64,000 bases of DNA from a virus (Duplodnaviria; Caudoviricetes): IMG/VR virus record IMGVR_UViG_3300046318_000318. The stretch is one strand, 5' to 3'. The notes beneath the pieces were generated by a model. That model was not told the DNA's origin, did no database searches, and saw nothing but the letters and a program-made list of their open reading frames with translations. Shown in pieces: positions 36,927 through 50,355 of this stretch. How positions within the stretch are numbered: the first letter of the stretch is position 1; every line of letters starts with the position of its first letter. Position numbers and translations under genes: made by a program.

Positions 36927-37238
36927 TGGTAGGCAGGATGAGATTCGAACTCACTATCTTCGGCTTCACATTTGTGTTAGTTTCCTAACTCTGTGGACTA
37001 TATCACCATCCTTAACTTAATATTAGGATGTCGGGCGCTTTACTCTGTTATTAAGAAGATTCTACTTCTCAGATAGTCTCTGCACTTTCCTAGGGTATAC
37101 CCTAAGCTTAGCTCAGTATTGCCGTCGTCATTATACGTTACGGTTTCACTGAATTCACCCGATTATTCAATACTGATTACTCAGTAAGGTCACCATTGAG
37201 ATGAGGCCGCCGCTTATAACCCCTTAAGCTTCCCGCCT
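36927..37238 (-). tRNA. tRNA-CAU (probably Ile2), interrupted at 36/37; exons 37238-37201 and 36966-36927
   Basis: spliced cloverleaf with acceptor AGGCGGG/CCUGCCU, loop CU-CAU-AA, TTCGAAT T-loop and encoded CCA; Ile2 identity inferred from the adjacent tilS. Confidence 0.88.
36967..37200 (-). mobile_element. group I intron, IC3-like (234 nt)
   Basis: P1 CAU|...GUG with U.G; GUGAAUUCAGUGAAACC, GGCAAUACUGAGCUAAGC, GCAGAGACUA and GAUAUAGUCC; omega-G at 36967. Confidence 0.9.
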
Positions 37239-37247
37239 ATTTTACAC

Positions 37248-37551
37248 TGGTCCGCCCGGCAAGAATCGAACTTGCAACTAAAACTTAGCGTCACACTATA
37301 GTTTTCACTACCAGGTTACCCTGTTTGTGCGCTGGACTTTGTCTTGATCATGACCTACTTATGATAGGTTTTAGATCTTTGCCGTCAAGTCTCTACACGT
37401 TCTATCCCTTTTGAAAAAGATAGCTTCGCTCGGCGTTGGCATCAGCATTACCTGTTAAGCGTTCACCGAATTTGACAAAATTCACTGAATACTTTCGACA
37501 TCCAGTGCTCCTAATTGAAGGTTCTTGTTATATCCATTTAACTACGGGCAG
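37248..37551 (-). tRNA. tRNA-Arg(UCU), interrupted at 34/35; exons 37551-37518 and 37288-37248
   Basis: spliced 75-nt cloverleaf, anticodon arm AGAAC-CUUCUAA-GUUUU, T-arm GCAAG-UUCGAUU-CUUGC, encoded CCA. Confidence 0.9.
37289..37517 (-). mobile_element. group I intron, IC3-like (229 nt)
   Basis: P1 CUU|C...GGAG with U.G; GUCAAAUUCGGUGAAC, GCCAACGCCGAGCGAAGC, GUAGAGACUUG and AAGACAAAGUCC (P7 GACUU/AAGUC); omega-G at 37289. Confidence 0.9.
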
Positions 37552-37554
37552 ATT

Positions 37555-38690
37555 ATCTTTAATAACACTTTATTCAAATGTTATTAAAGATACCCAATAT
37601 CACTATTGGGTCTTACCACTTATTACTCACGTAAGACAAAGCTCACATTTTCACATTAGATTCTATATTCTTTTACTCTTATAGACTTTACAGTCAGAGA
37701 TATTCCTTTAAGAATCTTACGTGGGTTTAAAGTCTTTCTACCATATCGTGTTATTAGTACCAGGGGCTGACTATGCAATCTTAGGCTTTTCCTGGATTCA
37801 GTCATGCTACAACTAATAACGCATCAGAGTAATTACTTCTGATATTTGACTTAGGTAATCTCCATTAGACTTATACCTTCTGTATTTAATCCGACCAGAC
37901 TGCCTTTCGCATGTATCTGGTTTTACTGTTTCCAGTAGTGAGCTAAACTCACATTTCGGTCAGATTGGTCCCAGAGTAACTCTGGACTTTGGAGATGGGC
38001 ACCCACTCGTTAAAGTGTTTTACCGTCTTTCGATAACTTTTACGCTCATTGACATAGCATGTGGTTTAAACATCGCTTGTCTTGATGGACTACAAGTTAT
38101 TTTTTCGGTGGCGTCTTGTTTATCTGTCTGCTTAATCGTTGTCGCTATTCCAAGGGCGAGTCCACCCATCCTGGCGAATGAGCTTCAATCTCTCACGACT
38201 ATCCTATAAACTTTTAAGCTTTTCCATTATTTCAGACCTTACAGCTAACGTCTATATCAGGCGATTAATATAGACATATGCGTATCTGTTGTCATGGCGA
38301 CAGATGTTCTCGATGATTGTTCAAGAACATCGATATTCCTCACATGAGTACATTACTGAAACTCATGCAACCTTTTACAAGGACGATATACTTAGGAACG
38401 CTAAGTATAATTAACTGTCTTTCACTCTCGTGTGGAGCTATTGAACTTAAAGCCACCAGTATCAAGACTAATCCTGGTTTCAATGATATTATTTATATAC
38501 CGCGCAAGGCGGTCGAGGTTTTTCTGGTGGGGATTTGATAGACCCTGTCGTTGCAGCAACACGTTTAGCCCTAGCAGACTGCAATCGTTTAAGGCTGTTG
38601 TCTATCTCATCCAGTTTGAACAACGACACAAGGTCGCACGCTCTCCAGAAATAACCCCATGAGAAATCATTCCACATGGCGATCACTTTC
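37555..38690 (-). ncRNA. candidate large structured ncRNA A (about 1.1 kb)
   Basis: dense hairpins, four minus-strand GNRA-capped stems, nested long-range helices; no convincing ORF. Confidence 0.6.
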
Positions 38691-38996
38691 TTAAGTTTGT
38701 TTCAGCTCTTCTATCATCAGTTCAAGCATACGCTTTTTAACTTCAGGATCTATGCTCTTGGGAACATAAACAAGTCCGCGTATGGCAAACTCTTTCATGT
38801 AAGACAACGACATTTTTGTCGCGTTGTCAAATCTGGTTTCACATGCTGTCAACCTAGAACCAGATTTTAAACTCTCTATGTAGTTTACAAAGTCATCTGA
38901 ACTAACCATACCTCTACAGATATCAATAAAGATATTATAAGGATGGGTATTGAGGTTGATTTCCATATGTTCCTTAGTGCATGCACCCTTGCACAT
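38691..38996 (-). CDS. hypothetical protein
   Basis: 101-aa ORF; start may be at MEINLN. Confidence 0.7.
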   Translation of the reverse strand: MCKGACTKEHMEINLNTHPYNIFIDICRGMVSSDDFVNYIESLKSGSRLTACETRFDNATKMSLSYMKEFAIRGLVYVPKSIDPEVKKRMLELMIEELKQT

Positions 38997-39269
38997 TATA
39001 CAAGAGGTAAATAAAATTTGACACTATTGTCAGATAGAGTTTATATAGCTATAGTTGTTTAGAAAAGGGAAAAATAAAACCACCAGGTGTTACCCTGGTG
39101 GTTTTATCTTGCGCTTACCCGCTTTTCAACTCGGAAGACCAAAACACCATGCGATCCTAAAGCCAGATCGTAATAATTGCTCGTTTTACCGAGTCCAACC
39201 ATTTATATAGGAGACACAGAGCTGGAGCTAATCCCAGTCGCCACTATGTACCTCAGTCTTTCCATAACA

Positions 39270-48164: not shown

Positions 48165-48359
48165 TTATATTTCTGTTGATTTAACAATGATAGATAAGCC
48201 ATCTGGATGATAGCTGGAAGTGCTCTTACAAGCCATGTTGATAGATTCTTCTATAGATTCAAACAGAGGATGATTCTGTCTAAATCTAAGCTGTACGTGT
48301 TTCTCTTTACCTTCGTCATTGACGATAGTTGTATTAAAGACTATTTCGTTACCGATCAT
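48165..48359 (-). CDS. hypothetical protein
   Basis: 64-aa ORF with a 4-nt overlap. Confidence 0.65.
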   Translation of the reverse strand: MIGNEIVFNTTIVNDEGKEKHVQLRFRQNHPLFESIEESINMACKSTSSYHPDGLSIIVKSTEI

Positions 48360-48580
48360 GATTTATCAAACCTCTTTTTTATCTCTCTAAAAACTACCAT
48401 CGATAACACCAGAGCTGAAAATATATTCAGTAAAGGAGCTAAAGACACCACTATCAAAATACCACCTGTGGTAGCACTGAAGTCTACACCTCTCTCATCA
48501 TAAAAAAGATAAGCGCAGATAGCTGTTAGAACAAAACCAAAGATTACAAAAGTCAGATGTGTAGTTATAAGAAATTCCAT
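48356..48580 (-). CDS. small two-TM membrane protein
   Basis: probable start MEFLIT; hydrophobic. Confidence 0.65.
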   Translation of the reverse strand: MEFLITTHLTFVIFGFVLTAICAYLFYDERGVDFSATTGGILIVVSLAPLLNIFSALVLSMVVFREIKKRFDKS

Positions 48581-48744
48581 TTTAATACCGTTGTTGTAGT
48601 TACAGTCAAATAATTTCGGGTAAAAAAATAAGGGCGGGACAGTTTGTATCTGCTTGTGACAACCGAGTCTGGGTAGACTGATCACTTGCATCAACAAACT
48701 GTCCCTAATTAAGAACAAAGCCAACATGAATCGAACATGTTAAG

Positions 48745-49978
48745 TAAATATAACCTTCTACGCAGAATAGCACTGCTCCAGTTAATTTACTTGCCTCTAC
48801 CAGACGGCTTTGTTTCTCTATTTATTACAAGATAGAGAAGGATGTGTCAGTCACCGCATCCAAGATATTTATAACACCGACTCGTGTTACCGGTTTGTCC
48901 AAACCTGGTGAAAGGATAAGCTACATCTGTTTAACTCAATCGCCACATACCCAGTAGTTCAGGTAAGGGTTAAGATGATTGTGCTATAATAAGCACAGAG
49001 CCTTAATACGACAGTGTTTTAATTCATCAACATAACACTGAAGATACCCGAGTTCTCAATAGAGAATCTCGCTGTATTTTTGATGCCTAAGCACTCTAAA
49101 GCTATCTCTCCTAAAATAAGAGATAGCTTATAGGCTGCTCTCTGGGGTGATCAATCCCAAAGTTTACAACTTCCCAAAGATATCATTCATACAGTTCCCG
49201 ACCAAGGGTAGTCTATATAAGAGATATCCATAGGGCGTACGATTTGGCGGTTGGTTAGACCACCTTCTACTCCTTAACAAAAAGTTAAAGGCAGGCTATT
49301 ATCGTGAGCGCACCTCTTTCTATTACACACTTGTGATGTGTTTCGTCCTTGTGTTTAAAGCCTTAGGACTCATCAGATAGATAAGGCTCAAATGAAGTTT
49401 ATGTGGCCTCATTCTTTTATAAAGGGGTTTTCCCATAGCAGACTAAATGACTTCTGTCTATCTAATCTGCTACAGGCAAACACCTGAGTGCTAACTTGTT
49501 ATCATATCACAAAGGTAGATAACCACAACCTATTACAATAAAGACGTGTGAATCGCCTGCTTGCTTTGGCAAGAACAGCCCTCGAAGCTAGAGCCACATC
49601 AGGTCTGAACAATCGTCAGAACACATGATCCCAGGGGATTTAAAAAGCATCAAACACAGTTCTGGGAAACTATGTGCTAGATCGACAGTTTATATTTTCC
49701 TTGTTTTATCAACTAAGTGAAAATACCGATCACTTTATACTGCTCCATCGTGCGTGTATTTTGTTATCACGCTAACGTCCCGATAGTACGTTTACCTAAG
49801 TTACCAATGGTCAATACCTGCACCCTAGCCTTACGCCCGCAAGCGATCTATTAACTTAACTCCGTAATCCGCAATGATATACGCACATTAAGAAATGTTT
49901 ACACACTAGATTTACTAAGCAGCGACTTGTTAGTTACCATTGATACGATCAAGTCTACTCCGGTTTACTTAGGTTAAA
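48745..49978 (-). ncRNA. candidate large structured ncRNA B (about 1.2 kb)
   Basis: no ORF of 60 aa or more on either strand; many hairpins, a long-range closing helix and a 10-bp pseudoknot; starts right after a tRNA CCA. Confidence 0.62.
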
Positions 49979-50036
49979 TGGTACCAGGAACGGGACTCGA
50001 ACCCGTAAGACCCTTGCGGAAGTATTAAGTTTTTAA
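49979..50036 (-). pseudogene. 3' half of a split tRNA-Leu (anticodon loop to CCA)
   Basis: TTAAAA-ACTTA, long variable arm, ACGGG-TTCGAGT-CCCGT, TCCTGGT-A-CCA. Confidence 0.82.
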
Positions 50037-50046
50037 AGTACATGGG

Positions 50047-50355
50047 TGGCCCGCTCCGGAATCGAACCGGAACGCCCCTTACGAAAGCGTCAGATTTTAA
50101 GTCTGATCTCTACCACTGCAGTTTTCACTGCCACTTTAGTGTGTTTGTGGTCTGGACTATCCCTTCAACTACATCCTAAATGTTTAGCTGGGCGATTATA
50201 GTCTCTGCACGTCTTTCTATATTTCTATAGAAATTTCGCTCAGGATTGGCATCAGCAATTAACTGTTAAGCTTTCCCTGAATTTACGCCATTTTACTACA
50301 TTATTTCTAATGTAGGACACATCAAATATATGTCTACCTATTTCATCAGCGGGCC
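50047..50355 (-). tRNA. tRNA-Leu(UAA), interrupted at 25/26; exons 50355-50330 and 50107-50047; CCA not encoded
   Basis: spliced cloverleaf with acceptor GGCCCGC/GCGGGCC, anticodon arm UCAGA-CUUAAAA-UCUGA and a long variable arm. Confidence 0.9.
50108..50329 (-). mobile_element. group I intron, IC3-like (222 nt), at the D-stem/anticodon-stem junction
   Basis: P1 GACAU|/GUGUC with U.G; P10 UUGAU pairs with 3' exon AUCAG; GUAAAUUCAGGGAAAGC, GCCAAUCCUGAGCG, GCAGAGACUA, AAGGGAUAGUCC; omega-G at 50108. Confidence 0.92.

Follow-up and report, generated by a model that had tools for sequence, protein, structure and literature searches.

Introduction

The question raised by the DNA examined here is why a phage keeps introns without an open reading frame (ORF) in most of its transfer RNA (tRNA) genes. 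The window, the whole stretch of 64,000 nucleotides (nt) from IMGVR_UViG_3300046318_000318, belongs to an uncultured freshwater giant phage. It carries genes for split subunits of a multisubunit RNA polymerase and for a family B-type DNA polymerase, as well as several HNH genes; relatives of the phage are labelled L001, L002 and so on. Three of its four tRNA genes, those for tRNA-Arg(UCU), tRNA(CAU) and tRNA-Leu(UAA), are split. Our analysis favours, with a probability of about 0.7, the reading that these are selfish mobile group I introns on ordinary phage tRNAs, accompanied by a tRNA-Leu-targeting HNH cassette and spreading through collaborative homing, in which free-standing endonucleases act together with ORF-less introns (PMC3984707, PMC2790892).

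Three split tRNA genes

Rfam returned six group I intron matches in the window. The intron in each of the Arg, CAU and Leu genes, at a different tRNA position each time (Table 1), had been proposed in the original prediction and is borne out by Rfam and by exon mapping. The Leu intron lies at nt 25/26, which is the junction between the D stem and the anticodon stem, outside the anticodon loop. No ORF of at least 50 amino acids (aa) was found within any of the three tRNA introns on the tRNA strand, and short opposite-strand ORFs overlap all three (36827-36988, 37436-37684 and 50046-50201).

The predicted splice sites are fixed by the complementarity of guides and exons, by the clean cloverleaves that result from splicing and by intronless homologues in relatives. 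Joined in silico, the exons are called by ARAGORN as tRNA-Arg(tct) and tRNA-Leu(taa), and the intron mode of the program gives identical bounds for the Arg gene (37248-37551). The spliced CAU product, with A8 and a mismatch at G27.A43, was not called by ARAGORN, lowered thresholds included. It folds by hand into a cloverleaf and matches the intronless CAU homologue of L012, which scores 44.6 bits as an Rfam tRNA and is continuous over the predicted junction TCAT/AAGCCGAAGATA (slash, exon junction).

From the unspliced window sequence, ARAGORN reports only tRNA-Thr(UGU) and a 93-nt 'tRNA-Met' (61240-61332, minus strand). The latter is read as a false call, being situated within a 514-aa ORF (60259-61803) and without an Rfam tRNA match; the ORF itself holds a repeated AxHxH-like peptide. 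Because standard tRNA finders miss all three split genes, phage tRNA counts are underestimates.

A nuclease cassette at the tRNA-Leu locus

The relative L001, which is 91-94% identical to the window, is without window positions 50871-50012 and has at that place one intact, intronless tRNA-Leu(UAA) of different sequence. Its contig ends before the Arg/CAU locus, and the comparison with L001 concerns the Leu side. In the window, the resident tRNA-Leu(UAA) is present as a 5' stump and a 3' stump, and the insert between them consists of a free-standing HNH endonuclease gene and, 11 nt downstream of it, the intron-bearing tRNA-Leu. Since the stumps flank this insert, the tRNA-Leu came as cargo of a nuclease cassette, with the resident gene destroyed. 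The HNH protein of the window has a DH..N..N motif and Cys pairs. A broken tRNA gene also occurs in L001, where tRNA-Thr(UGU) (4627-5116) is interrupted after the D loop by a 147-aa HNH-like ORF with 25% identity to the window HNH protein (E 4e-9); the 3' part of this tRNA no longer pairs with the 5' part.

The HNH family is linked to tRNA-Leu(UAA) well beyond the window. In IMG/VR, each of the 18 loci carries an intact or intron-split tRNA-Leu(UAA) no more than about 100 nt away from the HNH gene. Among the 80 metagenome loci, the neighbour of the HNH gene is an intronless tRNA-Leu(UAA) in 39 and a tRNA-type group I intron in 20, 59 together, and several of the remaining 21 run into the contig end. 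Three arrangements are found. The first is the HNH gene beside an intronless tRNA-Leu, and about two thirds of the identified HNH-linked tRNA-Leu genes are intronless. The second is a free-standing HNH gene followed by a tRNA-Leu with an ORF-less intron, as in the window, L021, L022, L026, L034, L044, L049, L050, L055 and L101. The third has the HNH gene inside the intron (L037, L060, L072, L080, L088, L090, L099, L105 and L114). An endonuclease that adjoins the intron-bearing gene, and that relatives have inside the intron, is the pattern by which collaborative homing is recognised, and the three arrangements fit it. In at least 10 loci, 5' stumps left by older tRNA-Leu genes end at about nt 22-31 and directly precede the HNH gene; in L019 they are nested.

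Verified by ARAGORN on the spliced products, the Leu introns of HNH-linked genes lie mostly at 34/35, at 31/32 in L022 (2054-2293), L044 (2076-2318) and L049 (2018-2268), and at 25/26 in the window and L050. In the 31/32 introns the last exon base is A, paired with a guide U, instead of the usual U.G wobble. The L050 intron is 87% identical to that of the window, with compensatory changes in P2 between the two, and the exons differ in the acceptor, the anticodon stem and the variable arm. Because the L050 intron occupies the same site in different exons, 25/26 is a kept feature and not the accident of a single genome.

A course of events may be proposed for these loci. Phage tRNA genes would have been colonised by two lineages of small, self-splicing group I introns without ORFs, at a cost that is probably low because the ribozyme would remove itself from the pre-tRNA. 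The introns would spread and persist at the DNA level in co-infections, through recombination of whole tRNA cassettes, and the Leu intron would travel together with its homing endonuclease. The HNH enzyme may cut tRNA-Leu(UAA) alleles that have no intron, somewhere around the D stem and anticodon arm at nt 20-35, and repair from a co-infecting donor would then copy in the HNH gene and a resistant tRNA-Leu, leaving the invaded gene as stumps. The copy could be resistant through diverged sequence or through a target split by an intron at 25/26, 31/32 or 34/35; immunity to the nuclease would be a by-product of collaborative homing. The original prediction had argued that ORF-less introns cannot home alone, and for the Leu intron this premise is weakened by the HNH gene just upstream, whose family is tied to genes and introns of tRNA-Leu(UAA) at about 100 loci. 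The further suggestion that the introns give protection from endonucleases fits at the DNA level, where the Leu intron interrupts the very stretch of tRNA-Leu in which invaded alleles break.

Exchange of tRNA cassettes at the Arg/CAU locus

The closest relative at the Arg/CAU locus is L002, with a TilS protein 94% identical to that of the window. Up to 37555, which is four bases short of the Arg gene, L002 matches the window at 93% identity, and from 36817 onwards it does so at 90%. The stretch in between measures 292 nt in L002 versus 737 nt in the window, and the L002 block holds intronless Arg(UCU) and CAU tRNAs with sequences unrelated to the window exons. Unrelated tRNAs between matching flanks indicate that the whole two-tRNA cassette was exchanged, not the intron alone.

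Comparing intron presence and absence across relatives, a check named together with the first reading of the locus, gave a patchy distribution in which the closest relatives (90-94% identical flanks) carry intronless, unrelated alleles. The window and L003 carry the CAU intron, and L034 carries another CAU intron; L002, L012, L009 and L021 have none. The Arg intron occurs in the window and, at the same site, in L019; it is missing from L002, L021 and L022. L012 (TilS 80% identical) has the window-type CAU allele without an intron, and L003 (TilS 73%) combines an L002-like CAU allele with a homologous intron in the same position. In L019, a contig of 223 kilobases, the Arg intron is 456 nt long (5478-5934), and 30 nt inside its 5' end, directly before the guide, it has a second copy of an exon end, this exon end being a foreign one (ACAACCTT). 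The copy results in two candidate 5' splice sites, of which only the outer one yields a tRNA, and such a foreign exon end points to DNA-level transfer.

The spread of the introns looks DNA-based, because of the whole-cassette exchange, the stumps and the exon end carried over in L019, and reverse splicing does not seem to be needed. For the Arg and CAU introns, what is claimed here is only a putative mobility by recombination of short-exon cassettes. Neutral spread by reverse splicing had been the alternative in the original prediction; gain and loss as mobile DNA, visible in the intronless relatives and in switches of host tRNA, is the part of it that stands, and reverse splicing is the part that can be dispensed with.

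More broadly, the introns could be neutral passengers that drift through general recombination or reverse splicing, with the HNH enzyme targeting tRNA-Leu for itself and its adjacency to introns coincidental. The lack of a nuclease gene near the Arg and CAU introns agrees with this, as do the intronless two thirds of the identified HNH-linked tRNA-Leu genes and the guides of 4-9 nt, which would permit reverse splicing into new sites (PMC3984707). However, coincidence fits poorly with an HNH gene inside a tRNA-Leu intron in at least nine loci and free-standing beside an ORF-less intron in at least ten, with three Leu intron sites that all fall within nt 25-35, the region where invaded alleles break, and with the pointer to DNA-level transfer in the L019 Arg intron. 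We regard this explanation as unlikely, though as one that carries some weight.

The introns as group I ribozymes

The three tRNA introns look like working ribozymes, self-splicing being inferred from an intact, covarying core and from exact guide-exon complementarity. In matches to RF00028, for which the gathering score is 50 bits, the CAU intron scores 87.7 bits (36974-37227, minus strand, E 1.6e-21), the Leu intron 59.7 bits (50131-50339, minus strand, E 4e-13) and the Arg intron 49.1 bits (37309-37528, minus strand, E 5.7e-10), 0.9 below the gathering score. Each of the three ends in G and has at its 5' splice site the G.U pair that is canonical there. The Arg guide UUAGGAG forms 7 contiguous pairs with the ligated loop CUU/CUAA, and the Leu guide UGAUGUGUC forms 9 with GACAU/AUCA; the CAU guide GUGA pairs with UCAU, and its P10 is not clear. 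Compensatory double changes occur in 21 of the 36 predicted pairs of the Arg/Leu-type fold (alignment of 5 sequences) and in 26 of the 55 of the CAU-type fold (4 sequences), both counts coming from small sets with structures predicted from the same alignments.

On sequence comparison, the tRNA introns fall into two lineages, both of which have switched between tRNAs and positions. The Arg introns of the window and L019 are 71% identical, and the CAU introns of the window and L003 are 74% identical. The window Leu intron shows 59-61% identity to the Arg introns versus 56% to the 34/35 Leu intron of L021, and the L022 intron at Leu 31/32 can be aligned with the CAU introns, covarying with them in the CAU-type fold. 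The window's three RNA polymerase introns stand apart from those of the tRNAs as a lineage of their own. These further group I introns lie among the RNA polymerase subunit ORFs (7080-7407, 19515-19807 and 19886-20196, minus strand) and are accompanied by HNH ORFs at 7440-8237 and 20152-21750. A search of GenBank phages gave no close relative; the matches cover 11-23% and consist of conserved intron cores of Klebsiella, Staphylococcus, Vibrio and crAss-like phages. In scans of IMG/VR, neither the three 5' exons, used as exact patterns, nor the TilS protein gave a match.

That the introns no longer splice, so that the three tRNA genes would be tolerated pseudogenes, is suggested by the failure of ARAGORN to call the spliced CAU tRNA, by the Arg score just below the Rfam threshold and by the sight of unspliced RNA only. 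This is extremely unlikely in view of guides exactly complementary to the ligated exons, core helices that covary and exons that give canonical cloverleaves. Furthermore, a diverged phage has retained both the 25/26 intron and its exons, heavy use is made of the cognate codons, and TilS is kept beside the CAU tRNA.

Precursor RNA and the role of the tRNAs

Environmental RNA shows that intron-bearing precursors exist. Unspliced contigs span the CAU gene in four metatranscriptomes, and those at 36929-37229, 36933-37213 and 36915-37167, from three metatranscriptomes, end near the mature tRNA ends, while an RNA contig at 50189-50403 crosses the Leu 5' junction unspliced. Apparent RNA joints at 37313/50142 and nearby were rejected as conserved intron cores of other organisms with short sides. 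Because such libraries lose small modified tRNAs (75-90 nt), the RNA contigs are silent on the share of precursor and are no evidence against splicing.

The original prediction had raised the possibility that splicing gates the tRNA supply, for instance through a pool of nuclease-resistant precursors, a proposal that found no support here, unspliced pre-tRNA being the only relevant datum. In such a system, precursors with the anticodon loop or the D/anticodon junction locked in P1 would escape host anticodon nucleases, self-splicing would release fresh tRNA and selection would keep the introns. The unspliced CAU contigs with ends near the mature tRNA ends are in line with it, as are the three of four tRNAs affected and the stability of the intron alleles across many samples. 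Yet the closest relatives have no introns at these sites, and most HNH-linked tRNA-Leu genes are intronless. The Leu intron, moreover, leaves the anticodon loop untouched, any tRNA once spliced would be exposed like any other, precursor contigs are expected anyway from libraries that lose the modified tRNAs, and no host anticodon nuclease is in evidence. A splicing-gated or protected supply is thus very unlikely. It is just as hard to credit that the end-trimmed, unspliced pre-tRNAs are a selected reserve that escapes nucleases and tops up the readers of AGA, AUA and UUA late in infection.

The tRNAs themselves have an ordinary role, as judged from codon use, in reading the A-ending codons AGA, UUA and AUA. 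In 36 ORFs, AUA makes up 28%, AGA 37%, UUA 18% and ACA 32% of their own codon families. The CAU tRNA is probably the AUA-reading tRNA-Ile2, because its adjacency to TilS repeats in relatives. Directly downstream of the CAU tRNA of the window, the TilS gene encodes the catalytic PP-loop domain without the C-terminal tRNA-binding domains (TIGR02432 103 bits, cut-off 93.6; PF01171 98.8 bits), and a tRNA(CAU) stands directly upstream of the TilS homologues in L002, L003, L009 and L012. The catalytic-domain-only TilS family comprises more than 100 proteins on huge-phage contigs, mostly encoded right after a tRNA(CAU).

Evidence against collaborative homing

Several observations weigh against mobile introns and an HNH cassette that spread by collaborative homing. 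The cut site of the HNH enzyme is inferred from the ends of the stumps, which scatter over about 10 nt, and the 3' stump of the window begins 27 nt further on; because of this scatter and offset, repair would not have been clean homing. No HNH or other endonuclease gene stands next to the Arg/CAU pair in the window, and a tblastn search near Arg/CAU with two HNH proteins matched only the Leu-linked gene. With no nuclease gene nearby, the case for mobility of the Arg and CAU introns is made wholly from their distribution. At least six assemblies carry the intron-bearing alleles in identical form, and the window stretch is found in freshwater metagenome DNA runs dated 2018-2025, in which most of the words sampled from the Arg/CAU stretch are present; intron alleles are therefore stable in this population, and current mobility was not observed. 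Finally, no spliced joint was found over any of the three introns in the RNA contigs, in which the CAU junctions and the Leu 5' junction are unspliced.

Neighbouring elements and ORF-free blocks

The features of the two tRNA loci and their surroundings are listed in Table 1. The original prediction had placed a large noncoding RNA candidate beside each tRNA locus, and these candidates proved to be real ORF-free blocks, 90-94% conserved in relatives and covered by RNA. In four metatranscriptomes the ORF-free blocks are the best-covered parts of the region, and most coding genes between them are without cover. No GOLLD or ROOL match was found in the blocks at E up to 10.

The block upstream of tRNA-Arg contains a stand-alone copy of the ribosomal L1 stalk, with a full-length alignment and compensatory changes across L002, L004, L007 and L021. 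One RNA contig has 167 other letters in place of 38134-38298. In the block downstream of tRNA-Leu, the hammerhead motif is made up of CUGAUGAG, a stem II of 4 base pairs with a 17-nt loop, CGAAAC, a stem III of 6 base pairs and a GUA cleavage triplet; a cleaner hammerhead occurs in an ORF-free block of L019 (about 1915-1985). Twister-sister ribozyme matches (42 bits) are found in the ORF-free block after tRNA-Leu in L004 (6940-7021) and also in L005 and L006. The third block, with a strong terminator-like hairpin (35743-35706) at its end, is matched by nhmmer in L002, L004, L007, L011 and L021 and lies beside the L1-stalk element in L004 and L007. A permuted tmRNA (transfer-messenger RNA; 83 bits) was seen on the huge-phage contig L011 (9507-9798).

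Table 1. Positions of the split tRNA genes, the HNH cassette and neighbouring elements in the window.
Feature	Position	Strand	Support or remark
tRNA-Arg(UCU) 5' exon, nt 1-34, ending ...CCUU	37518..37551	-	ARAGORN tRNA-Arg(tct) once joined to 37288-37248
tRNA-Arg ORF-less group I intron, 229 nt, between nt 34 and 35	37289..37517	-	RF00028
tRNA-Arg(UCU) 3' exon, CCA encoded	37248..37288	-	
tRNA(CAU) 5' exon, anticodon CAU at its end	37201..37238	-	
tRNA(CAU) ORF-less group I intron, 234 nt, after nt 36	36967..37200	-	RF00028
tRNA(CAU) 3' exon, CCA encoded	36927..36966	-	
Terminator-like hairpin, 19 pairs then T run, end of noncoding RNA/Arg/CAU unit	36878..36918	-	
tRNA-Leu(UAA) 5' exon, nt 1-25, acceptor strand and complete D arm	50330..50355	-	
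tRNA-Leu ORF-less group I intron, 222 nt, between nt 25 and 26	50108..50329	-	RF00028
tRNA-Leu(UAA) 3' exon, nt 26 to discriminator, anticodon loop intact	50047..50107	-	
Free-standing HNH endonuclease gene, 166 aa	50367..50867	-	phrog_14913 E 8.6e-15; weak PF13392
5' stump of resident tRNA-Leu(UAA), nt 1 to about 27	50871..50898	-	gene intact in L001
3' stump of resident tRNA-Leu(UAA), end of variable arm, T arm, acceptor, CCA	49979..50012	-	
tRNA-Thr(UGU), intact, intronless	50963..51037	-	ARAGORN, Rfam
TilS N-domain-only protein, about 203 aa from ATG at 36856	36245..36856	-	TIGR02432, PF01171
ORF-free block upstream of tRNA-Arg	37552..38690	-	93% identical to L002; RNA contigs 37619-38636
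Ribosomal L1 stalk copy (23S helices 76-78)	38130-38219	-	RF02541 positions 2126-2215, 46.8 bits, E 2e-11; match absent when 37540-38700 searched alone, reproduced with alignment in another search
ORF-free block downstream of tRNA-Leu	48728..49978	-	94% identical to L001; RNA contigs 48814-49962
Type I hammerhead motif	about 49385-49318	-	intact core; Rfam only 16 bits
Third ORF-free block, downstream of TilS gene	35678-36244	-	RNA contigs 35932-36233

Significance and comparison with known systems

A group I intron at the D-stem/anticodon-stem junction, kept in two diverged phages, goes beyond the textbook case. The series of about 100 loci, in which one HNH family occurs in every proposed stage of the birth of a mobile intron, is a data set for testing the collaborative-homing model. 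The tRNA genes of giant phages appear to be a regular battleground, in which nuclease cassettes destroy the resident tRNA and bring their own replacement.

Among known introns, the pre-tRNA-Ile(CAU) of Azoarcus sp. BH72 carries a group I intron of subgroup IC3 (PMC13168695). The CAU intron of the window is likewise situated in a CAU tRNA right after the anticodon, its guide pairs with CAU, and both introns are small (about 205-234 nt) and ORF-less. In Azoarcus the site is reportedly 36/37, after the anticodon, and the guide GUG is said to pair with CAU. Unlike that intron, the one described here is found in a phage, with its tRNA beside a phage TilS gene, and the likeness between the two is one of host tRNA, site and guide. 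The Leu intron of the window shares its host tRNA, its anticodon and the lack of an ORF with the tRNA-Leu(UAA) intron of cyanobacteria and plastids. The introns of the relatives L021, L026, L034, L055 and L101 lie at the classic U34/A35 site, as in cyanobacteria and plastids, whereas that of the window lies at 25/26 and is closer in sequence to the Arg introns. A survey of bacterial tRNAs described 21 group I intron types, all in the anticodon loop, by a method that tests loop positions only (Williams 2020, bioRxiv 10.1101/2020.01.27.920355). Our literature search, a limited one, turned up no tRNA group I intron described from any place other than the anticodon loop.

Rudi et al. (2002, J Bacteriol 184:666, cited in PMC3984707) are said to have found that the entire tRNA-Leu(UAA) locus, with its intron, recombines in cyanobacteria. 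Similarly, the comparison of the Arg/CAU block of the window with L002 suggests an intron that moves with whole tRNA exons. The cyanobacterial case differs in that it concerns bacterial chromosomes and has no endonuclease cassette; here the carrier is a phage.

Endonucleases aimed at tRNA genes are cited in two accounts (PMC3984707, PMC2988022), namely SegB, located in the tRNA cluster of T4, and I-Ssp6803I, which belongs to the intron of tRNA-fMet in Synechocystis. The HNH candidate of the window would resemble both in targeting a tRNA gene, and would differ from them in its HNH family and in the tRNAs concerned. SegB is a GIY-YIG enzyme, and I-Ssp6803I belongs to the PD-(D/E)XK family. Collaborative homing is exemplified by mobE and the nrdB intron of T4 (PMC2790892) and by F-CphI and the psbA intron of cyanophage S-PM2 (PMC6083498; reviewed in PMC3984707). 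As the model for mobE and F-CphI predicts, genomes related to the window have the endonuclease inside the intron. In contrast to those two pairs, the system described here would have a tRNA gene as its target, leaves stumps of the resident gene behind and appears to bring a whole replacement tRNA.

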